DNA of 64,000 bases, taken from contig QFQY01000014.1 of the NCBI GenBank assembly GCA_003248805.1, forward strand, positions 41,000-104,999. The letters are read 5' to 3'. This DNA is from Chelatococcus sp. Its GTDB lineage: Bacteria > Pseudomonadota > Alphaproteobacteria > Rhizobiales > Beijerinckiaceae. The notes under the pieces were generated by a model, which did not search any database, was not told the origin of the DNA, and saw only the letters and a program-made list of their open reading frames with translations. Shown in pieces: positions 25,996 through 45,724 of the stretch. The translations under genes and the position numbers were made by a program. Each line of letters begins with the position of its first letter. Positions within the stretch are counted from its first letter, which is position 1.

Positions 25996-26159
25996 AGGTC
26001 GAGGTTGTTATGTTATAACAAAACATGGTAACGACCGCGTCATGTGCAGTCCTCCCTTGATCCCGGTCCTCCCGACGCGCCCCGCAAATCCTCCCGGCCT
26101 CGCTTCCGCCTCGCGGATGCAGGCGCATTTCGGGTCTTGTGCGTCGTCCGGGCGCGGAC

Positions 26160-26345
26160 CTATGATCGACAAGTCGGTTCCCGAGAGGGATCAAAAGGGA
26201 ATCCGGTATCCGTTCTTCGAACGGGAAACCGGAGCTGCCCCCGCAACTGTGAGCGGCGAGCGCCGTTCGTCTGGGCCACTGGGTTTTCCTGGGAAGGCCG
26301 GACGGCGCAAGGACCCGCGAGCCAGGAGACCTGCCGACGCAGGAT
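26160..26345 (+). promoter_or_regulatory. Cobalamin (AdoCbl) riboswitch
   Basis: Conserved core elements appear in order: GGTTCCC…AGGGA…AAAAGGGAATCCGGT…GCTGCCCCCGCAACTGTGAGCGG…GCCACTGG…GGGAAGGC, then the B12 box GAGCCAGGAGACCTGCC at 26318-26334. It sits ~170 nt upstream of the next ORF. Boundaries are approximate. Confidence 0.85.
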
Positions 26346-26513
26346 CGTACGTAGACCGGGCGGGGTGCACCGGCGGCGGATTTGGCGACGCGGGGCGCGG
26401 CGGCGAGGTTGATCGTCCGGCGCATGCCCCGTTGCGGCGAGTTCCCGACTGTTCCCCGGAGACTTGGGAGCAGTCGTCTTGAATCGTTGCCGTCATTCCA
26501 TCTCGACCGCGGA

Positions 26514-34231: not shown

Positions 34232-34307
<76 letters not shown>

Positions 34308-34925: not shown

Positions 34926-36991
<2,066 letters not shown>

Positions 36992-37068
36992 GCCTCGGAT
37001 TCGGGCGGGCGCCGCCCAGCTTTGACGCTTGGAACGAATCGAAAGCAAGCGCACACTGCCGTTGCGAC

Positions 37069-37893
37069 ATGACGACGGAGGTGGCGATGCGGCGTTGGCT
37101 GTTCGGTCTCTCGTGTCTGGCGGCAGCTCTGGCGACGAGTTCGCCCGGCGACGCCCAGCAGGCGACGGCGCCTCCCGAGGAGGTCGACGTGGCGCTCGTG
37201 TTGGCCGTCGACGTGTCCTATTCGATGGATCTCGACGAGCTCGCGCTCCAGCGCAACGGCTATATCGAGGCGTTCCGGGCGCGCGAACTGCACGACGCCA
37301 TCGCGAAGGGCGCGCTCGGCAAGATCGCGGTGACGTATTTCGAATGGGCCGGCGGCAATTTCCAGCACGTCATCAGGCCCTGGAAGATCATCGACGGGCC
37401 GGCTGCCGCGATCGCCTTCGCCGAGGAGCTCGGCGAGGCGCCCACCCGGCGCGGACGGCGGACCTCGATCTCGGGCGCCATCGATCTCGGCGTCTCGCTG
37501 CTGGAGCAGTCCAACGTCGTCGCCCTGCGCAAGGTGATCGACATCTCCGGCGACGGCGCCAACAATGACGGGCGCCCGGTCACGGCGGCGCGGGACGAGG
37601 CGAACGCCAAGGGCATCGCGATCAACGGCCTGCCGGTGATGCTGAAGCAGGCCAGCTATTTCGACATCGACAATCTCGACGTCTACTATCAGGACTGCGT
37701 CGTCACCGGCATCGGCGCCTTCGTCATTCCGATCCGCGAGCGCCATCAGTTCGTCGACGCGACGCGCACCAAGCTGCTGCGCGAGATCGCCGAGGCGCCG
37801 CCGGAGGCCACGGTGCAGAAGGCCCAGAGCTCGGCGCCCAACTCCTCCTGCCTCGCGGGCGAGCGCCAGTGGCGCGACCGGATGGGGAATTGA
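37069..37893 (+). CDS. DUF1194-type (vWA-like) secreted protein
   Basis: Signal-like N-terminus, then VDVALVLAVDVSYSMDLDELALQRNGY…ISGDGANNDG…GIAINGLPV. The start is 37069 or the ATG at 37087. Confidence 0.7.
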   Translation: MTTEVAMRRWLFGLSCLAAALATSSPGDAQQATAPPEEVDVALVLAVDVSYSMDLDELALQRNGYIEAFRARELHDAIAKGALGKIAVTYFEWAGGNFQHVIRPWKIIDGPAAAIAFAEELGEAPTRRGRRTSISGAIDLGVSLLEQSNVVALRKVIDISGDGANNDGRPVTAARDEANAKGIAINGLPVMLKQASYFDIDNLDVYYQDCVVTGIGAFVIPIRERHQFVDATRTKLLREIAEAPPEATVQKAQSSAPNSSCLAGERQWRDRMGN

Positions 37894-37936: not shown

Positions 37937-39280
37937 TCAGGTCTCGCGGAAGGCGCGGGCCATGCTGTCGCGCAGCGGCTGCATCAGATATTCGAAGAAG
38001 GTGCGCTCGGTCGTCTGGATATAGACCTCCGCCGGCATGCCCGGCGTCGGCTCGAAGCCGCGAACGCCGGCGACGCTCGCGCTCTTGAGCCTGACGCGGA
38101 CGACATAGACGTCGGGCGCCGACGGGGCCGAGCGCATCTTGTCGTCCGGCAAGGCGTCGGCCGAGATGTAGACCACGACGCCCTCGACCATCGGCGTGGT
38201 GCGCTGGTTCAGCGCGGTGAGCCGCACGGCGGCGGTCTGGCTGTGCTTGATCTTGTCGATGTCCTGCGGCCTCACCCGGGCTTCGATGACGAGCTCGTCC
38301 TGCAGGGAGACGATCTCCATGATCGCCTTGCCCGGCTCGATGACGCCACCTGGCGTGTGGTAACGCAGCTTCACGACCGTGCCCTTCACCGGGGCGAGGA
38401 TGCGTGTGCGCTCGAGCTGGTTGCGCATGCCGCGGCTGCGCTCCCGGACGTCGTTGAGCTCCGCGCTGATGTCCTGGAGCTGTTCCGAGGCGACCTTGAT
38501 CGCCTGCTTGCGGACGCCTTCCATCTGCTCGAGCGAACGGGCGATGCGCTCGCGCGAATCGCCGATATCGCCCGTGATGCGCCCGATCTCGCCCTGGATG
38601 TTGGCGGCGCTGCGCTGGAGGGACAGGACCTCGGGCTTGCGGATGTAGCCGCGCGCAAGCAGGGCCGCCTTGCCTTCCAGCTCCTCCTTGAGCAGTTCCG
38701 CCTGGCGATGGAGCGAGGCGACCTGGACCCGACTTCCGGCGATGCGCTCCTCCAGCCCGTCGATGCTCTTCTGGTAGGTGGCGACGTCGCTCGCGATGTT
38801 GGCGCGGCGAGCCTCGAAGGTCGCTCGCTGGGCGGCGAGCAGCGTGGCGATGTCGGAATCGCCGGCAGCCGCAGTGAGATGCGCAGGAAAGACGAGGCTG
38901 TCCTGCCCGGCGACTTCCGCCCGCAGCCGGGCCTCGATCGCCTCGGCGCGCATCTGCCGCAGATGCAGCCGCCGCAGCTCCGCCCGCGGGGAGACGTCGT
39001 CGAGCATGATCAGCGGCTGGCCGCTCTCCACCACATCGCCCTCGCGCACCAGAATCTGGCCGATCACGCCGCCTTCCAGATGCTGGATCGTCTTGTTCTG
39101 GCCGTTTGTGGTGAAGACGCCGGTCGCGATGACGGCGCCCGAGATCGGCGCCGTGTTGCCCCAGACGCCGAAGCCCATCACCGTCGCGGCCAGCACCGCC
39201 ACCCCGCAGAGCTTGGCCCAGCGGGCGTTGCGCGGCACGCCCTGGTACCAGGGCTGGACATCGAGCGTGAGGGCGGACAT
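37937..39280 (-). CDS. Type I secretion system membrane-fusion (periplasmic adaptor) protein, HlyD family
   Basis: 447 aa. One N-terminal TM segment (AKLCGVAVLAATVMGFGVWG), QHLEGGVIGQILVREGDVVESGQPL (lipoyl/barrel hairpin), a long coiled-coil region, and ILAPVKGTVVKL. Confidence 0.9.
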   Translation of the reverse strand: MSALTLDVQPWYQGVPRNARWAKLCGVAVLAATVMGFGVWGNTAPISGAVIATGVFTTNGQNKTIQHLEGGVIGQILVREGDVVESGQPLIMLDDVSPRAELRRLHLRQMRAEAIEARLRAEVAGQDSLVFPAHLTAAAGDSDIATLLAAQRATFEARRANIASDVATYQKSIDGLEERIAGSRVQVASLHRQAELLKEELEGKAALLARGYIRKPEVLSLQRSAANIQGEIGRITGDIGDSRERIARSLEQMEGVRKQAIKVASEQLQDISAELNDVRERSRGMRNQLERTRILAPVKGTVVKLRYHTPGGVIEPGKAIMEIVSLQDELVIEARVRPQDIDKIKHSQTAAVRLTALNQRTTPMVEGVVVYISADALPDDKMRSAPSAPDVYVVRVRLKSASVAGVRGFEPTPGMPAEVYIQTTERTFFEYLMQPLRDSMARAFRET

Positions 39281-39311: not shown

Positions 39312-41351
39312 TCAGCTGGGCTGGGGCTGGCCGCCCTCGGGCGTGCGCTGCCCCGTGATCAAGGGCAGCACGTCGTCGCGTCGGCCGATCATCTGGAGGC
39401 CGCCGTCCTTGATCATCATGATCTTGTCGACGCTGCGCAGCAGGGTCGGGCGCTGCGTCACTGCGACGATGGTCATGCCCCGCGCCTTGGCCCGCTCGAA
39501 GGCCACGGCGAGCGCCTTCTCGCCGAGGACGTCGAGATTGGAGTTCGGCTCGTCGAGCACGACCAGCCGGGGATTGCCGAAGAAGGCGCGGGCGAGGCCG
39601 ATGCGCTGCTTCTGGCCGCCGGAGAGCGGGCTGCCGTCCATGCCGATCTGCGTTTCGTAGCCCTGGGCGAACTGCGAGATCATCTCGTGGATGTCGGCGA
39701 TCTCCGCGGCCTCGAACACCTCGGCATCGGTAGCGTCCTCCCGCATGCGGGCGATGTTGGCCTTGATCGAGGCCGGGAAGAGCTGCATGTCCTGCGGCAG
39801 GTAGCCGACGCTCTCGCCGAACTGGCGCGGGTCCCAGTTGCGCAGATCCATCATGTCGAGCCTGACATTGCCGGCCGTCGGGTTGATCGAACCGACGAGC
39901 ATGCGCGCCAGCGTGGACTTGCCGCAGCCGGACGCCCCGACGATGGCGAGCGAGTCGCCCGGTTCCAGGCTGAAACTGATGCCGTTGAGGATGACCTTCT
40001 TCGTCGGCGGAGGCACATAGAGGATGCGCTCGACGTCGAGCTTGCCCGCAGGGCGCGGCAGGCGCAGCCGGTCGAGGTTGAGCGGAGAGCTCTGCAGCAG
40101 CGCCTGGACCCGCGAATAGGCGGCCCGCGCATGGATGAAGCTGCGCCAGCCCTCGATCGTGCCCTCGAGCGGGGCGAGCGCGCGCCCGGCCACGACGGAG
40201 GAGGCGATCACCATGCCGCCGGTGAGCTGGCCGGACAGCGAGAGCCAGGCGCCCCAACCGAGCATCGCGATCTGGGTGGAGAGCCGGAAGAACTTGGAGA
40301 TGCCGGTCATCACGACATTGCGGTCCTGGGCGCTGACCTGCGCCCGCAGCGACTCCGCCGTCTCGCGACCCCAGATCACCACGCCCTCGGGGATCATGCC
40401 CATGGCGTTGATGACCTGCGCGTTGCGCGACATCGCCTCGGTCTGCAGGTTCGCGCGCGTCGAGTACGCGCTGGCCCTGGCGAAGGGCACCGCCGTGAGC
40501 TGCTGGTTGATATAGGCGAGAAGGACCAGCACCAGCGCGGCGACGGCAACGATATAGCCGAGGTCCGGATGGATCAGGAACACCGCCAGCAGATAGATCG
40601 GCGCGGTCGGCGCATCGAGCATCGTCAGGACGACCGGCCCGGTCAGAAAACTGCGGATCTGCTGAAGGTCCGCCAGCACCTGGAATTCGCGGCTCGAGCC
40701 GGTCTGCGCCGCCTTGGCCGCGGCTGCGAGCACCGGCGCGCCGAGCCGGCTTTCGACATCGGCCGCGACGCGGGTGAGGATGAAGCGGCGCATCATGTCG
40801 AGCAGGACATGGGCGAGGATCGCGATCATGACGATGATCGAGAGCATCACCAGCGTATCGAGGCTGCGGCTGGTCAGCACCCGGTCCGACATCTGGAAAA
40901 GGTAGATCGGCACGGCGAGCACGAGCGTGTTCACCATCACCGAGAACAGCGCCACGATCAGGAGATTGCGCCGCGCATCGGCCAGCCCCTTGCCGAGCAC
41001 CTGCCGGAAGTCGCGGTCCCCGAGGCGCTTCTCGATGGGCGAACCGCCGCCGCCTCCGCCGCCCCGGCCTCCGCCCCCGCCATGGGAGGGCGGCGCGCCG
41101 TTGCCGGGGCTCACCGAGGGAGCCTTCGGACGCATCGTCGCGGGGCGCCGGGGCGCCGGAGCCTCGGCAGGCGCTTCGGCGCGGGCGGGCGCGGTCTGCT
41201 CCGAAACGGGGTCGTTGCTGTTCGCGACCGCCCCGCGCCTCATCTCGTCGAGGCCCATTTCCTCGAGGCCCATGGCCCGGGGCAGGACCGGCCCCATGGG
41301 GGCGGCGGTCGATCGCGGCGACGCCGCGCTTGTCATGGGGTCGTCATGCAT
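39312..41351 (-). CDS. Type I secretion system permease/ATPase (PrtD/HasD type, no C39 peptidase domain), with an unusual low-complexity N-terminal extension
   Basis: The TMD begins …ARRNLLIVALFSVMVNTLVLAVPIYLFQMSDRVL. The NBD has GASGCGKST, LSGGQKQR and VLDEPNSNLD. About 100 aa upstream of the TMD are A/P-rich and include GGGGGRGGGGGGG. The alternative start at M73 (41135) would still retain the Gly tract. Confidence 0.85.
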   Translation of the reverse strand: MHDDPMTSAASPRSTAAPMGPVLPRAMGLEEMGLDEMRRGAVANSNDPVSEQTAPARAEAPAEAPAPRRPATMRPKAPSVSPGNGAPPSHGGGGGRGGGGGGGSPIEKRLGDRDFRQVLGKGLADARRNLLIVALFSVMVNTLVLAVPIYLFQMSDRVLTSRSLDTLVMLSIIVMIAILAHVLLDMMRRFILTRVAADVESRLGAPVLAAAAKAAQTGSSREFQVLADLQQIRSFLTGPVVLTMLDAPTAPIYLLAVFLIHPDLGYIVAVAALVLVLLAYINQQLTAVPFARASAYSTRANLQTEAMSRNAQVINAMGMIPEGVVIWGRETAESLRAQVSAQDRNVVMTGISKFFRLSTQIAMLGWGAWLSLSGQLTGGMVIASSVVAGRALAPLEGTIEGWRSFIHARAAYSRVQALLQSSPLNLDRLRLPRPAGKLDVERILYVPPPTKKVILNGISFSLEPGDSLAIVGASGCGKSTLARMLVGSINPTAGNVRLDMMDLRNWDPRQFGESVGYLPQDMQLFPASIKANIARMREDATDAEVFEAAEIADIHEMISQFAQGYETQIGMDGSPLSGGQKQRIGLARAFFGNPRLVVLDEPNSNLDVLGEKALAVAFERAKARGMTIVAVTQRPTLLRSVDKIMMIKDGGLQMIGRRDDVLPLITGQRTPEGGQPQPS

Positions 41352-41366
41352 GATTCCGGCAGCCCC

Positions 41367-43358
41367 TCAGCTCAGCATCTGCGACATGAGATGGTCGTTG
41401 GCGCTGCCGGAGCAGCCGCCGTAACCGGGCTCGGGATGGCCGCCGTCATCCTCCGGCTCCGAGGCGAAAACGGCGAGTTCCGGAGCGAGCAGGCTGGTGT
41501 CGTGGATGACGATCCGGTCGTCATCCGTGACGATGTTGGCCTGCACGAGAATGCTGGCCTCATAGGCATCGCCGCCGAGATATTTGGAGGTCGAGAGCGC
41601 GCCCGGGTCGACGATGCGCGCTTCGTTCAGCATCGTGTTGCCGCCGGTTGAGACGCCCTGTCCGCTGTCGTCGGTCGTGCTCGCCTGAACGCTCTGGTCG
41701 ACGTCGGACATCACGTTGACCTGCGTGATCGTGTTGACGTCGTAGTAGTCGCCATTGACGTAGAGGATCTTCAGCGTGCCGGAAGCGCTGCCCGTCAGCT
41801 GCCAGTCGGCGTCGGGCGTCAGGCGCGAGACATTCTGGTCCAGACCCTCCAGCAGGTTGCGCTGGGCGTCGTTGAGCGCCTTGAAGGCCGCGCTGTCATA
41901 GGTCGTGATGCCGGCGTCGTTGACGAGCCGGTTGAAGCCGGCCGAGACCTCCGCGCCGGTGTCGTCGGCGTTGCCTGCCGAGACGATCTTCGCGACGTCG
42001 CTGTCCAGCATGACGTTGTACTGGAAGATCCAGTCGGCCCGGTGGTAGGAGCCGCCGACGATGATGATGTCGTAGGAGTCGAAGCCGGAGACCTTGGCGA
42101 GATTGTCCTGGTCGTTGCCGCCCGTCCGGGCGTCGAAATAGGTGCCCGCCGTCACCTGGACCGAGCGGTCGTTGTCGTCCAGCCCGTTGAACTGGACCAC
42201 CGACTTCACGTCGTAGAAGTCGCCGCGAAAGACGTCGACCTGCCAGTGCGGCGTCGCGGCTGCGCCACGATGCGCCAGGGCGATGTCGTGGACGACGAAC
42301 TCCGCGATGTTGTGGACCTGGTTGCCGTCCGCCCGGACGAAAGGCGAGGCGGAATCGCTCCGGGCGATGTCGACCCGGTCGCTGTCCGTCAGGATGTTGA
42401 CCTGCACGATGCCGCGGCTGAAGAAGTAGTCGCCGCCGATCATCAGGGAGCCGCTCGCCTCGTTCGCGTCGACGATGAGCGCGGCGTTGACTTGCGTGTT
42501 CTGGCCCGCCTCGACCACGGTCGCGACGCCCTGTGCCGGGGCGGGTCCGTCGATGCGGCTCTCCGCCTGCGCGGCTGCGGCCTCCGTGGGGACACGCCAC
42601 GGCGCGATCTCGAGAGGGTCGATGACCGGCAGCGGCGCGTCGCTGACGACGCCGTCGACGATGCGGCCGACAGGCGGCGTGGCGGTGGCGCCCTCGTCCG
42701 GCGCCTCGCCGCTCGCGCGCCAGCCGGCATCGCGGGCCTCGACCGAGGCGATCAGGGACGTGGCGTCGCCCGCCGCATGGCGCGGCAGCGTTTCCGGAGT
42801 CTCGTCGAGGGCCCGCGCGAGCATTTGCGAAATCTCGAGAGACGTATCGACCGCGGGCGGGACGACGGGCTCTCCGTCCGCGCCGCGCAGGCCCTGCGCG
42901 ATCAGCGTGTCGCGATCCTCCATCGCATGGATCTGCTTGACCGCGACCAGGCTCTCGTATCCGCCCTCCTCGTAGGTGACGGCGATGTGCCGCGGCACGG
43001 CCAGGCCGGGACCATCCGCCTCCTGAAAAGACTGCGGCTGCAGCGCCGCCGGCTTGTAGGGCAGGGGGGTGGGCACCACGCTGCCGCCGGGCATGGGCAC
43101 GCCGGGGATCGCCATTCTTGGAATCGGAATCAGATGGCCGGGATCGAGGGGCGGCGACTCGGGCAGGAGCACCGGGCGTGACGAAAGATCGTCGAAGTCC
43201 GGGCGGGCGCCGGCGTCGCGGAGCATGGCCCCCGGTTCGTCCGGCGGACGGACCGCCGGCGCGCCGTCATAGATTTCAGAGGAACGGGCGAGCGCATCGG
43301 AGATGTGCAGATAGCCCGCGAAGTGCCAGATGGTTTCGGTGAAACCGGCCGCGTTCAT
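41367..43358 (-). CDS. Large repeat protein (663 aa from MNAAGF…), probable T1SS-associated protein; no RTX nonapeptides and no Sec signal
   Basis: ORF 41367..43490. The likely start is ATG (complement of 43356-43358). The N-terminal half is proline-rich. The C-terminal ~335 aa contain five degenerate modules G-x-N-x3-N-x-A-x-I … GGDYY-x4-I-x-Q-x-N-x-(L/M)-x-D-x-D. It ends 15 nt before the ABC gene ORF. Confidence 0.7.
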   Translation of the reverse strand: MNAAGFTETIWHFAGYLHISDALARSSEIYDGAPAVRPPDEPGAMLRDAGARPDFDDLSSRPVLLPESPPLDPGHLIPIPRMAIPGVPMPGGSVVPTPLPYKPAALQPQSFQEADGPGLAVPRHIAVTYEEGGYESLVAVKQIHAMEDRDTLIAQGLRGADGEPVVPPAVDTSLEISQMLARALDETPETLPRHAAGDATSLIASVEARDAGWRASGEAPDEGATATPPVGRIVDGVVSDAPLPVIDPLEIAPWRVPTEAAAAQAESRIDGPAPAQGVATVVEAGQNTQVNAALIVDANEASGSLMIGGDYFFSRGIVQVNILTDSDRVDIARSDSASPFVRADGNQVHNIAEFVVHDIALAHRGAAATPHWQVDVFRGDFYDVKSVVQFNGLDDNDRSVQVTAGTYFDARTGGNDQDNLAKVSGFDSYDIIIVGGSYHRADWIFQYNVMLDSDVAKIVSAGNADDTGAEVSAGFNRLVNDAGITTYDSAAFKALNDAQRNLLEGLDQNVSRLTPDADWQLTGSASGTLKILYVNGDYYDVNTITQVNVMSDVDQSVQASTTDDSGQGVSTGGNTMLNEARIVDPGALSTSKYLGGDAYEASILVQANIVTDDDRIVIHDTSLLAPELAVFASEPEDDGGHPEPGYGGCSGSANDHLMSQMLS

Positions 43359-43517: not shown

Positions 43518-44357
43518 TCAAAGGGCGTCGTTGATGTCGCCGCCGACGACCTGCAGGTCGACGGAGTTGAACTGGATGTTCGCGCCCATCGCAATGTGCT
43601 GGGTGAAGGCTTCCTGCGTGATCGAAGCCGCGGCGCTCGCGGTGCCGACGCCCGAGAAGTCGCCATCGTCGCCGGTGATCGCGCCGACGTTGGAGGTCGC
43701 CTCGCCACCCCAGGCCTTCGCCGTCATCGAGAAGTCGCCCACGGAGCTGGGATCGTGCGAGCGGCCGAAGCTCTCGGCGTCGAGCCCACCGGCGGCGTAG
43801 GACACCGAGGCGCCGCAGAGCGAGTCGTTGTCGGTCAGGTTGCTGACCTGATCGAGATTGAAGTTGGAGCCCGTGGTCGTGAGCTGGCTCACGACATCCG
43901 GCATCACGATCGACTGGCCGAGGTCGCTGATGTTGTCGATGTCGATCGCGTCGTTGTCGGACGGCACGCCGCTGTAGTCCGCGGAGATACCGAGATCGAC
44001 GTTGACACAGACGTTCACCGCCGTGTCGACCGTGTTCTCGACATGGTTCTGAACGTCGTTCGTGTTGGTGTTCGCGTTCTCGTTGCCGTTCTCGCTGTAG
44101 TTCAGGTTGCCATTGGCGTTACCGTTGGCGTTGCCGTTCAGATTGCCGTTGGCGTTGCCGTTGACGGCAGTGTTCCAGACGCTCGTGTCGACCGCCTGGC
44201 CGGCATACTGCGACTGGCCCTGGCCCTGGTAGGAGCCCTGGCCCTGGGCCTGACCTTGCCCCTGACCCTGGCCCTGCAACTGGGCCTGCAGCTCGGCCTG
44301 AGCCTGAGCCTGATCCTGGCTCGGATCATACGGTTTCGGGTGCGACCTGTTGCTCAT
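43518..44357 (-). CDS. Low-complexity Q/G- and N/G/A-rich repeat protein (279 aa), candidate type I secretion substrate
   Basis: Starts MSNRSHPKPYDP (ATG complement of 44355-44357), preceded by GGGAGAG. AQAQAELQAQLQGQGQGQGQAQGQGSYQGQGQSQYAGQ is followed by NGNANGNLNGNANGNANGNLNYSENGNENANTNTN. There is no signal peptide. The C-terminus is …GANIQFNSVDLQVVGGDINDAL. Confidence 0.7.
   Translation of the reverse strand: MSNRSHPKPYDPSQDQAQAQAELQAQLQGQGQGQGQAQGQGSYQGQGQSQYAGQAVDTSVWNTAVNGNANGNLNGNANGNANGNLNYSENGNENANTNTNDVQNHVENTVDTAVNVCVNVDLGISADYSGVPSDNDAIDIDNISDLGQSIVMPDVVSQLTTTGSNFNLDQVSNLTDNDSLCGASVSYAAGGLDAESFGRSHDPSSVGDFSMTAKAWGGEATSNVGAITGDDGDFSGVGTASAAASITQEAFTQHIAMGANIQFNSVDLQVVGGDINDAL
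44076..44320. repeat. In-frame short tandem DNA repeats encoding the N/G/A and Q/G tracts
   Basis: Reiterated GTTGCCGTT/GGCGTT units lie at 44076-44168. Reiterated CTGGCC/CTGACC/CTGAGC hexamers lie at 44196-44320 (plus-strand reading). Confidence 0.8.
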
Positions 44358-44905
44358 GACACTCTCCCGTTGGTGATGTCGGAGCGTCGTCGAAAGACCC
44401 CATCGCATCTCTTCTGTGACGCGAAAGTGGTACCTCTTCGAACACTCCTGATATCCTGTTGCGGTTCATTTGTTGCGGTGCCGGCCACTTGTAAAAATCG
44501 GGAAAACACCGCTCTCGACTGTCGTCCGGATAGATTTGGGTCGCTAATACCAGGTCATGGCGTCCTCCCATTCGCTTCGTCCCGACCGCCGAGCGCGCCG
44601 CCGATCCCTTGCCGGGATTTCTCTTTCGACGCTTCGCGGAGGATATGAAGTAGTTATTTGTGGTTAGCGCCGCTCGAATGGCGTGTCGATTTCAGTAAAA
44701 AAACGAAGTTGCGCAAATCCCTTAAGCGGATTTGCGTATCGCTTCTGAGCTCAGCGAGATTAACGACTCGGCAGATGCTCGTTTTCTTGAGCCGAGAATT
44801 CAACCATGCTATCGAAGCGTCAACTTTGATAAGCCGTACCCATCGCCGACGGGTCGTTGTCTTTTCCCGACCCGACCAGAAAAAGACGGGGCGGAGGAGG
44901 AAGCC

Positions 44906-45724
44906 ATGTGCGGATCAGGGAAATTCCGCTGCGAGGCGGAGGCCTATCTCTTTGTCGAAAGCCTCTCCTGGGATGGCAGCCCGCGCTGCCCGCACTGCGG
45001 CGAGCGTTCGCGGCTGGGCCGCCTGCGGGGCCGCAGCACCTCGCCCGGAACCTGGAAATGCTATCGTTGCCGGAAGCCGTTTTCCGTGCGCATCGGCACC
45101 GCGTTCCACAACAGCCATGTGCCGCTGCATGTCTGGCTGCAGGCGCTCTATCTCATGGCCGCCTCGGGGGGGCGCGTCAGCGTCCATTCGCTCTCGCAGG
45201 TGCTGATGGTGTCCCAGCGGACGGCCTGGCACCTCAAGCAGAGGATCGCCGCGAGCTTCGAGGCGCTCGCTCCAGACGGGACCGGAAAGGCCGCGGCGCC
45301 GGCCGGCGATGTCGATCTCGCTCTCACGCCACAGCCGGGCGAGCCGGGCGAGCCCTGGTTGAACGTCAGCCGCTACGAGCGCTTCCGGCAGGCGGCCGAG
45401 GCGAAAGGCGGACCCGAGACGCGGCCGCTCTTCCTGGCCGGCCTGCACGGCCTGCTGGGGCACAAGCTCCAGGCCGCGCCGCGCGGCGAGGAGCGAGACG
45501 AAGTCCAGCTCGAGCTTCTGCTGGAGGCCCGGCCCGAGCGTGATCGCTCGCTGCCGGCTCACGCAGGCGCGCTCCTCAGCAGCGGCCTTCGGACAGCGGG
45601 TCCGTCACATGCCGATCCCACAACGCCTGAAGATGGCCGCCATGTTCGTGCGCAGCCGCCGCATCCGTTTCCGAGCCGGCATCTGAACCCGCGAAATATC
45701 GGCTCGCGTCTCCACCCGTTCTAG
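44906..45724 (+). CDS. IS1595-type transposase N-terminal zinc-ribbon/HTH domain protein lacking a recognisable DDE domain
   Basis: ATG 44906 is preceded by GGAGGAGG. …SPRCPHCGERS…WKCYRCRKPFSVRIGTAFHNSHVPLHVWLQALYLM…VSQRTAWHLKQRI resembles the Zn-ribbon N-terminus of IS1595 transposases. No VE.DE.Y.GG-type catalytic region follows. The last ~150 nt overlap a convergent ORF and lose the GC3 bias. Confidence 0.55.
   Translation: MCGSGKFRCEAEAYLFVESLSWDGSPRCPHCGERSRLGRLRGRSTSPGTWKCYRCRKPFSVRIGTAFHNSHVPLHVWLQALYLMAASGGRVSVHSLSQVLMVSQRTAWHLKQRIAASFEALAPDGTGKAAAPAGDVDLALTPQPGEPGEPWLNVSRYERFRQAAEAKGGPETRPLFLAGLHGLLGHKLQAAPRGEERDEVQLELLLEARPERDRSLPAHAGALLSSGLRTAGPSHADPTTPEDGRHVRAQPPHPFPSRHLNPRNIGSRLHPF

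Follow-up and report, generated by a model that had tools for sequence, protein, structure and literature searches.

A five-unit beta repeat protein encoded beside a type I secretion system in Chelatococcus, a probable non-RTX cargo of a previously undescribed family

What is a long, internally repetitive protein for when its repeat resembles none of the curated kinds and its gene adjoins secretion genes? The window in which this question arises is a 64,000-nucleotide stretch of the genome of Chelatococcus sp. (assembly GCA_003248805.1, contig QFQY01000014.1, positions 41,000 to 104,999 of the forward strand), and all positions given below are counted from its first nucleotide. The reverse strand of the window carries the gene for a protein of 663 amino acids (aa). 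An earlier note, made from the letters alone, had described a five-fold repeat in the C-terminal part of this protein at 41505-42509, which corresponds to aa 284-618. The five units quoted there lie at aa 285-329, 345-399, 413-456, 474-556, and 572-616. The protein belongs to a previously undescribed family whose repeat and fold are absent from Pfam, NCBIfam, and the PDB, a conclusion that survives every test run. It is probably a non-RTX cargo of the PrtD/HlyD-type type I secretion system (T1SS) beside it and carries a new five-unit beta domain. The T1SS cassette and the small partner gene that form the main clue to this function lie outside the interval that had first been pointed out.

The repeat is real and not an artefact. 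The 663-aa reading starts at an ATG common to all homologues. A 707-aa reading from an upstream ATG has no support in the family alignment. A total of 85 units from the window protein and 16 homologues were aligned, and a hidden Markov model (HMM) was built from the alignment. The unit core consists of 49 columns with the pattern xTGxNxxxNxAxIxx…VxGDYYxxxxIxQxNxxxDxDxxxx. N9 and Q37 are invariant in the 85 units, followed by G27 (99%), N39 (98%), D45 (95%), N5 (94%), A11 (88%), and D43 (88%). The HMM finds exactly five domains in the window protein, each scoring 59.6-67.7 bits, and has no match outside this protein among the six-frame open reading frames (ORFs) of the window. The 10 possible unit pairs were also compared by Smith-Waterman scores against 300 shuffles. 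Nine of these pairs score above all 300 shuffles (z 5.0-17.0), and pair 2-3 is the only weak one (z 2.1). Self-BLASTP of the protein gives the diagonal and no off-diagonal match, because the divergence of the units exceeds what that method can detect. The same five units are kept position by position in homologues of as little as 30% identity, and the DxD pairs are conserved in all five units as well as in a half-unit described below. The insertions in units 2 and 4 fall at the same point, between core positions 17 and 18. The five units that had been read from the translation are therefore borne out by the shuffle tests, by five HMM domains of about 60 bits, and by their conservation in homologues, and the internal periodicity is significant by both the shuffles and the unit HMM.

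A degenerate sixth copy, here called half-unit 0, lies within the N-terminal domain and matches unit positions about 19-49. Its sequence is IAVTYEEGGYESLVAVKQIHAMEDRD (aa 125-150), which contains GGYESLVAVKQIHAMEDRD (aa 132-150). Across the family, Q142 is invariant, N144 is nearly invariant, and D148 and D150 are conserved in at least 90% of members. The family residue N144 is replaced by His in the window protein. The half-unit is modelled by AlphaFold2 with a strand-turn-long-strand pattern like that of the full units, and the Phreatobacter homologue shows a weak partial match to the unit profile at the equivalent place.

The repeat has no counterpart in the curated collections searched. 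The whole protein matches no Pfam-A family at E<=1 and gives only one sub-threshold noise match in NCBIfam. Of the 85 units, searched singly, at most 2 match any one Pfam family. The PDB, queried with the 663-aa sequence, the family profile, and the unit profile, returns no match. None of 93 database homologues has a precomputed Pfam domain. They are named "hypothetical protein" or "Uncharacterized protein", save one with the automated name "Type I secretion protein". The family was not found in the literature on Bosea and Bradyrhizobium T1SS or on non-RTX solenoid cargo. The earlier claim that the repeat is unlike RTX, cadherin, or other known repeats thus holds for Pfam, NCBIfam, the RTX nonapeptide, and the PDB, and neither the 85 units nor the whole protein falls into a defined Pfam repeat family.

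Running a unit HMM against a large protein set had been proposed in the earlier note. A set of 1.84 billion cluster representatives (clusters at 50% identity) was searched with the 49-position unit profile, which matches 668 clusters at E<=1e-3, of which 278 reach E<=1e-30. The best 150 matches are 325-771 aa in length, mostly 630-730, and contain 4-7 matched stretches, mostly five or six. The short matches that were inspected are N-terminally cut fragments from contig ends. Exactly five significant units are present in 221 of 225 retrieved members, and four units in 4 of the 225. The repeat is therefore a fixed five-unit domain and not an array of variable copy number. Named members come from Bosea, Bradyrhizobium, Afipia, Hyphomicrobium, Oricola, Phreatobacter, Methylobacterium, and Xanthobacteraceae. 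In a scan of one genome per species, 128 relatives were found, and the best 80 of the 128, which were looked at, add Nitrobacter, Tardiphaga, Microvirga, Salinarimonas, Roseibium, Stappia, and Pseudorhodoplanes. All taxonomically placed matches are within Hyphomicrobiales, to which the family appears restricted as far as seen. The nearest relative of the window protein comes from metagenomes (99% identity), and the nearest named genus is Bosea (about 60%).

The repeat gene is one of four genes that lie on one strand in the order small gene, repeat gene, ABC exporter, and adaptor, with gaps in the window of 159, 15, and 31 bp. The exporter gene starts 15 bp after the stop codon of the repeat gene. 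The four window proteins were compared by tblastn with 84 loci, 80 of these from the genomes of different species. The order is kept in essentially every locus whose contig is long enough, with short gaps, in Bosea, Bradyrhizobium, Afipia, Nitrobacter, Tardiphaga, Microvirga, Salinarimonas, Roseibium, Stappia, Pseudorhodoplanes, and Phreatobacter. Although tblastn did not pick up the small gene of Phreatobacter, a clear homologue can be seen there. The genes that flank the four differ between genera. With the order kept and the flanks variable, the unit of conservation is the four-gene cassette. A promoter and terminator scan of the cassette was uninformative. The features of the cassette are listed in Table 1.

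Table 1. Features of the four-gene cassette and of the repeat protein, with their positions in the window and their occurrence in the loci compared (pLDDT, predicted local distance difference test)
Feature	Position	Strand	Basis	Identity to window protein	Loci
Small partner gene, 279 aa, putative second cargo	43518..44357	-	ORF list, homologues, synteny	34-72% (genome loci)	76/84
Gene for 663-aa repeat protein (stop codon included)	41367..43358	-	ORF list and family alignment	30-61% (genome loci)	all
N-terminal motif, aa 5-25, GFTETIWHFAGYLH…R, low-confidence helix	43284..43346	-	alignment and AlphaFold2		
Pro-rich low-confidence linker, aa 26-119	43002..43283	-	pLDDT 26-41		
N-terminal domain region, aa 120-275	42534..43001	-	AlphaFold2		
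Orphan half-unit 0, aa 125-154, IAVTYEEGGYESLVAVKQIHAMEDRDTLIA	42897..42986	-	family alignment and model		
Repeat unit 1, aa 283-331	42366..42512	-	67.7 bits		
Repeat unit 2, aa 343-401, 10 residues inserted between strands A and B	42156..42332	-	59.6 bits		
Repeat unit 3, aa 411-458	41985..42128	-	60.4 bits		
Repeat unit 4, aa 472-558, insertion of ~38 residues with helix aa 497-507	41685..41945	-	60.0 bits		
Repeat unit 5, aa 570-618	41505..41651	-	66.7 bits		
Acidic disordered C-terminal tail, aa 627-663, putative uncleaved type I secretion signal	41370..41480	-	pLDDT 32-40		
Type I secretion ABC permease/ATPase, PrtD subfamily	39312..41351	-	TIGR01842 688.7 bits (cut-off 510), ABC_tran, ABC_membrane	68-86% (genome loci)	all but two, which contig ends truncate
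Type I secretion periplasmic adaptor, HlyD/AprE family	37937..39280	-	TIGR01843 382.8 bits (cut-off 208.65)	53-79%	wherever contig reaches

The position of the repeat gene beside an exporter invites comparison with RTX proteins (AprA/PrtB proteases, lipases, and RsaA-type S-layer proteins), which are T1SS cargo with Ca2+-binding beta-roll repeats. T1SS cargo carries an uncleaved C-terminal signal of about 60 residues, and the RTX repeats just upstream of it are unfolded in the cytoplasm and fold outside the cell (PMC3034196). The pI of RTX proteases is 4.0-4.6, and RTX lipases and S-layer proteins have no cysteines (PMC3034196). The 663-aa protein has this layout in all but the kind of repeat and is therefore cargo-like. 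Like the RTX proteins, it is encoded next to a PrtD-type ABC exporter and an HlyD-type adaptor, both of which score above cut-off. It is likewise acidic (pI 4.25) and Cys-poor (one Cys), and its Gly/Asp/Asn beta repeat with conserved Asp stands directly before a disordered C-terminal tail. Neither the repeat protein nor the small protein shows, on reading of its first 30 residues, a Sec-type N-terminal signal. The N-terminus of the repeat protein, MNAAGFTETIWHFAGYLHISDALARS, reads as lacking both a basic n-region and a hydrophobic h-region. The general features of T1SS substrates are thus present, namely no visible Sec or Tat signal, an acidic composition, a single Cys, and a gene beside its own exporter. 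Synteny and composition together make export of the 663-aa protein by this T1SS very likely.

The tail opens with a conserved PELAVFA box and closes with …DHLMSQMLS. Residues E627 and F631 are conserved in the family alignments. The last ten residues follow the pattern [HQ]-D-[DH]-[LVMI]-[MLT]-[SG]-[SNG]-[IVM]-[LM]-x in the 225 members, and the last 45 aa contain on average 7.6 D+E and 0.5 K+R. From its sequence, the tail (aa 627-663) is likely an uncleaved secretion signal.

The repeat itself differs from RTX. The protein has no GGxGxDxUx nonapeptide and no HemolysinCabind match, and a relaxed G.G.D regular expression has no match in either putative cargo. A single RTX match by regular expression occurs in 3 of the 225 family members and is read as chance. 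The unit is 49 or more residues long with 23-residue strands, compared with 9 residues per half-turn in RTX. The number of units is fixed at five, and the invariant residues are Asn and Gln rather than Gly.

The structure of the 663-aa protein was modelled with AlphaFold2 from a 41-sequence alignment. The model has a predicted template modelling score (pTM) of 0.70, and 252 residues have pLDDT>=90. The region from aa 279 to 620 is composed entirely of strands, with pLDDT mostly 80-96, so the beta structure proposed for the repeat agrees with the prediction. Every unit is modelled alike, with a short linker strand followed by strand A (9-12 residues), strand B (4-8 residues), and strand C (23 residues). 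Strand C is continuous and starts directly after the Gly-Asp turn.

Contacts between strands were sought by coevolution. Mean-field direct coupling analysis (DCA) was applied to the full-length family (241 sequences, effective number (Meff) 175) and to 1300 pooled pairs of consecutive units (Meff 745). The pooled analysis is confounded by unit identity, and only the registers that it shares with the full-length analysis were used. Two antiparallel registers are common to both. The first joins strand B and the start of strand C around G27-D28, with a position sum of about 53. The second joins positions 35-45 of strand C in unit i with positions 13-5 of strand A in unit i+1, with a sum of about 48. 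The top couplings are D43(i)-D45(i+1), L41(i)-position 7(i+1), and D45(i)-N5(i+1), or D452-D554, M550-M576, and D554-N574 in the numbering of the window protein. These registers bring N5, D43, and D45 next to one another on adjacent strands, as they do N9, Q37, and N39, so that the conserved polar residues would form two stripes across the strands. The couplings fit an Asp/Asn stripe across neighbouring strands, and metal binding by this stripe is putative. The conserved DxD pairs and their couplings are also suggestive of Ca2+-dependent folding, which is likewise putative.

The overall shape of the modelled body may be a long antiparallel meander or layers of strand-turn-strand arches. Foldseek searches of the PDB give a best row of E 0.22 (FapC), followed by beta-helix proteins. 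All rows have TM<=0.15 and are read as noise. The best BFVD row has E 3e-4 but a TM of 0.07 and a root-mean-square deviation (rmsd) of 40 Å, and nothing credible was found in that collection. The beta-helix proteins concerned (pectate lyase, SufBD, LpxD, tapirin, and phage depolymerases) resemble the repeat in having repetitive beta strands and polar ladders. They fill only weak rows, at E>0.2, TM<=0.1, and rmsd of about 30 Å, and show no demonstrable shared fold. No significant superposition on a known beta-solenoid was obtained in either collection. Two other folds were considered and rejected. A five-bladed beta-propeller was set aside on account of the 23-residue strands and of the lack of any Foldseek match to the abundant propellers. 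For an outer-membrane beta-barrel, no signal peptide was seen, the tabulated terminal residue is not aromatic, and no porin-like Foldseek match was returned.

The cargo reading can be set out as a proposed sequence of events. The protein consists of the N-terminal motif, a Pro-rich linker of about 95 residues, a small folded domain ending in the half-repeat, the five units, and an acidic tail of about 37 residues. Each modelled unit comprises a short linker strand, strand A (GxNxxxNxAxI), an insertion-tolerant loop, strand B, the tight Gly-Asp turn, and strand C (YYxxxxIxQxNxLxDxDxV). Strand B would pair with the start of C, and the remainder of C would run antiparallel to strand A of the next unit, a pairing across units that would interlock them into one continuous all-beta body. 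This body would bear two polar stripes across its strands, one of invariant Asn/Gln (N9, Q37, N39) and one acidic (N5, D43, D45). Lying just upstream of the signal, the repeat domain would be unfolded in the cytoplasm, as RTX repeats are, and would fold outside the cell from its C-terminal end, possibly aided by cations that neutralise the Asp stripe. Such cation-assisted folding through the Asp stripe is plausible, though rather doubtful. Once outside, the protein would act as a structural or adhesive protein of the surface or matrix together with the co-exported small Gln/Asn-rich protein. From the architecture only, we infer this extracellular role.

Several points weigh against this reading. 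Secretion of every family member is something that we infer and not an observation. The terminal motif is not a textbook PrtD-class signal. By regular expression, the 663-aa protein contains no RTX repeats, and its DxD context is neither GGxGxD nor DxDxDG. No gene for an outer-membrane factor is present in the cassette, by the ORF list and the neighbours. The outer-membrane factor gene of a T1SS is often unlinked. On the structural side, both coupling analyses are noisy, with an effective number of 175 for the full-length set and the confounding of the pooled pairs. The full-length analysis also gives strong in-register coupling between units 1-3, 2-4, and 1-5 (z 6.9-10.2) but not between units 1-2 or 2-3. 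Such coupling between units i and i+2 is not explained by a simple meander. It could reflect two-layer packing or contacts, concerted evolution of similar units, or an effect of the alignment.

The part of the protein upstream of the repeat is of mixed character. It had been described beforehand as proline-rich and probably disordered. This description stands for aa 1-119, which contain 21 Pro, and fails for aa 120-257, which are folded with pLDDT mostly above 70. The latter are modelled as an alpha/beta domain with strands at 125-131 and 136-154, helices at 173-185 and 199-216, and pLDDT of 73-93 over most of its length. The N-terminal domain region (aa 120-275) has no Pfam match. Residues 258-274 are again of low confidence (pLDDT below 50). 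The linker (aa 26-119) is weakly conserved and varies in length in the family alignments.

Residues 1-25 are of low confidence yet highly conserved. The motif TETIWHFAGYLH, within the first ~25 residues, is among the most conserved stretches of the family, yet it precedes a disordered Pro-rich linker of ~95 residues. Columns I10, W11, H12, F13, G15, Y16, and L17 are nearly invariant in the family alignment, and the pattern [ED]xIWHF[AIL]GY is so well conserved that genomes could be searched with it. AlphaFold2 places a helix over the motif at aa 6-25 with a pLDDT of about 40. Docking, retention, or chaperone binding are candidate roles that the motif may have.

The small partner protein is also acidic (pI 4.05) and Cys-poor. 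An alternative upstream ATG at 44408 would lengthen it from 279 to 296 aa. The protein contains (N-terminal to C-terminal) a (Q-G/Q-A)n tract, an (N-x)n or V-x-N-x tract, and a conserved region that includes FNLDQVSNLTDNDSL and QEAFTQHIAMGANIQFNS. Within the second tract, Asn occupies every second or fourth position (NGNLNGNANGN…, VENKVDNKV…). The conserved boxes of the family in the C-terminal region are FNIDQVNNLVDNDxL and an end of the form QEAFTQxIxMGANIQFNS…V.G.D…(D/S)xL. A database protein of 279 aa is 100% identical, and 299 homologues were found, all unnamed and with no Pfam domains. Homologues also occur in Blastochloris and Methylobacterium. Modelled alone by AlphaFold2, the protein has a pLDDT of 43.7 and is disordered as a monomer. 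Two stretches recall the repeat unit. The box iDQVNnLvDnD~l aligns with the unit's second half, I~Q~Nil~D~D~v, over 13 columns (hhalign P 0.005, probability 7%), and the end GANIQFNS…V.GGD resembles the first half (GxNxxxN…GGD). Neither likeness is significant.

These properties of the partner bear on an alternative in which the two proteins form an extracellular fibre or polar zipper. The repeat protein would be the folded template or anchor whose Asn/Gln/Asp stripes nucleate or cap polymerisation of the partner, comparable to CsgB and CsgA in curli but exported by T1SS. The two genes are co-conserved beside one exporter, and the (QG)n and (N-x)n tracts of the acidic small protein, together with its disorder when modelled alone, are as this alternative would have them. 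The resemblance of the partner to both halves of the unit, the orphan second half-unit at the N-terminal side of the repeat protein, and the FapC amyloid in the top, non-significant Foldseek row (E 0.22) also point in this direction. The repeat protein further resembles CsgA/CsgB and FapC in that its imperfect repeats conserve Gln/Asn and Gly at set positions, and in having a Gln/Asn-rich partner. The motif likeness is, however, not statistically significant, and the FapC row, with its TM-score of 0.05-0.15, amounts to noise. Pfam and NCBIfam give no curlin or Fap match, and neither Curlin_rpt (PF07012) nor Fap is matched by the protein, the isolated units, or the small partner. The neighbours are T1SS genes and not csgEFG or fapF, and export would be by T1SS rather than through the CsgG or FapF outer-membrane channels after Sec. 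Coevolution also gives antiparallel hairpin pairing and not only in-register parallel stacking. The fibre alternative is on balance unlikely.

A more specific form of this idea is a T1SS-exported two-protein assembly in which the five-and-a-half-unit body, presenting ordered Asn/Gln and Asp stripes, templates or caps the partner by polar-zipper strand addition, as an independently evolved curli-like pair. The disordered partner, in which the (N-x)n tract has Asn at every second residue, would be what polymerises. In this detailed form the proposal is a long shot. If true, secretion in a single step would go together with a repeat fold that the PDB does not contain.

The N-terminal part of the protein bears on another alternative, in which the 663-aa protein is an accessory export part, such as an envelope anchor or plug for the small protein, retained by its N-terminal motif and Pro-rich tether in the manner of LapA. 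Surface-retained T1SS adhesins are known. After the highly conserved N-terminal motif come ~95 flexible residues, a linker estimated to be long enough to span the envelope conduit. Like the giant adhesins of the LapA/MpIBP type, the protein would be a modular T1SS cargo with an N-terminal element, an extender, and C-terminal repeats followed by a signal, and an extracellular adhesive or structural role is proposed for both. It differs from these adhesins in its much smaller size (663 aa) and in lacking Ig-like, VCBS, or RTX modules. The exporter is of the PrtD type without a C39-like domain, and the LapB/LssB-type model TIGR03375 scores 335 on it, far below its cut-off of 693. No LapG- or LapD-like genes are among the neighbours, and the N-terminal motif is a low-confidence helix and not a folded plug or retention module. 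An accessory role of this kind is accordingly judged improbable.

The synteny data speak to a third alternative, a secreted toxin or bacteriocin such as a beta pore-former, with the small protein as a helper or second toxin. T1SS cargo does include bacteriocins and toxins (PMC3034196), and the long amphipathic beta-hairpins of the AlphaFold2 model would suit a beta pore-former. The cassette has no conserved immunity-like gene, only the four genes are constant and the flanks differ, and no similarity to toxin families is found in Pfam, NCBIfam, or Foldseek. The cassette was found as one locus per genome in the species-representative collection, with identity falling from Bosea to the distant genera. 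The single locus and graded identities look like vertical inheritance of a housekeeping system and not like a mobile weapon, and a toxin is highly improbable. The weakest alternative, in which the periodicity arises artefactually by chance or from the composition of a high-GC ORF, draws on the 63-73% GC of the window (in 2-kb windows), the many long spurious ORFs on both strands, and the blank self-BLASTP, and is refuted by the shuffle tests, the five 60-bit matches, the 668 clusters, and the confident structure model, which leave it practically no probability.

Several further observations concern the cassette and its surroundings. The N-terminus of the exporter ORF (40990-41351, reverse strand) is a low-complexity Gly/Pro-rich extension of ~120 aa with the run GGGGGRGGGGGGGS and Pro/Ala-rich stretches. 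The Phreatobacter exporter is of similar length (688 aa). For many loci, tblastn aligns the window exporter only from several hundred bases downstream of the repeat gene onwards. The extension may be a genuine domain or may result from a start codon called too far upstream. The adaptor gene is followed directly by a 426-aa ORF at 36466-37746 (reverse strand) with no Pfam match and no tblastn match in the other loci. This is probably a spurious high-GC ORF, and the cassette therefore ends at the adaptor.

Divergently upstream of the cassette, at 44732-45724 (forward strand), lies a gene for a protein with an IS1595-type transposase zinc-ribbon domain. A gene of this type is at the same place in 27 loci, comprising three near-identical metagenome contigs and Bosea-type loci (about 43-52% identity among the matches listed). 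Such conserved placement is odd for a transposase and suggests a domesticated regulator. Elsewhere, the window contains a cobalamin riboswitch (RF00174, 117 bits) at 26158-26352 (forward strand) and its only tRNA, tRNA-Ala (GGC), at 34232-34307 (reverse strand), which is followed by an EPSP synthase gene at 34929-36344 (forward strand).

The reading of the 663-aa protein as a probable non-RTX T1SS cargo matters first for annotation. T1SS cargo is usually recognised by RTX repeats, and cargo that lacks them is under-annotated and hard to predict. The present family is well populated, with 668 clusters, and is conserved together with its own exporter in the Bosea, Bradyrhizobium, Afipia, and Nitrobacter genomes retrieved. 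At least two new domain-family entries and a better name than "hypothetical protein" are justified. Should the repeat, like RTX, fold on leaving the cell, the same export problem would have been solved a second time and independently, and the repeat might offer a new scaffold for secretion or display. If both proteins co-assemble, soil and root-associated bacteria would have a surface fibre or matrix of a new kind.

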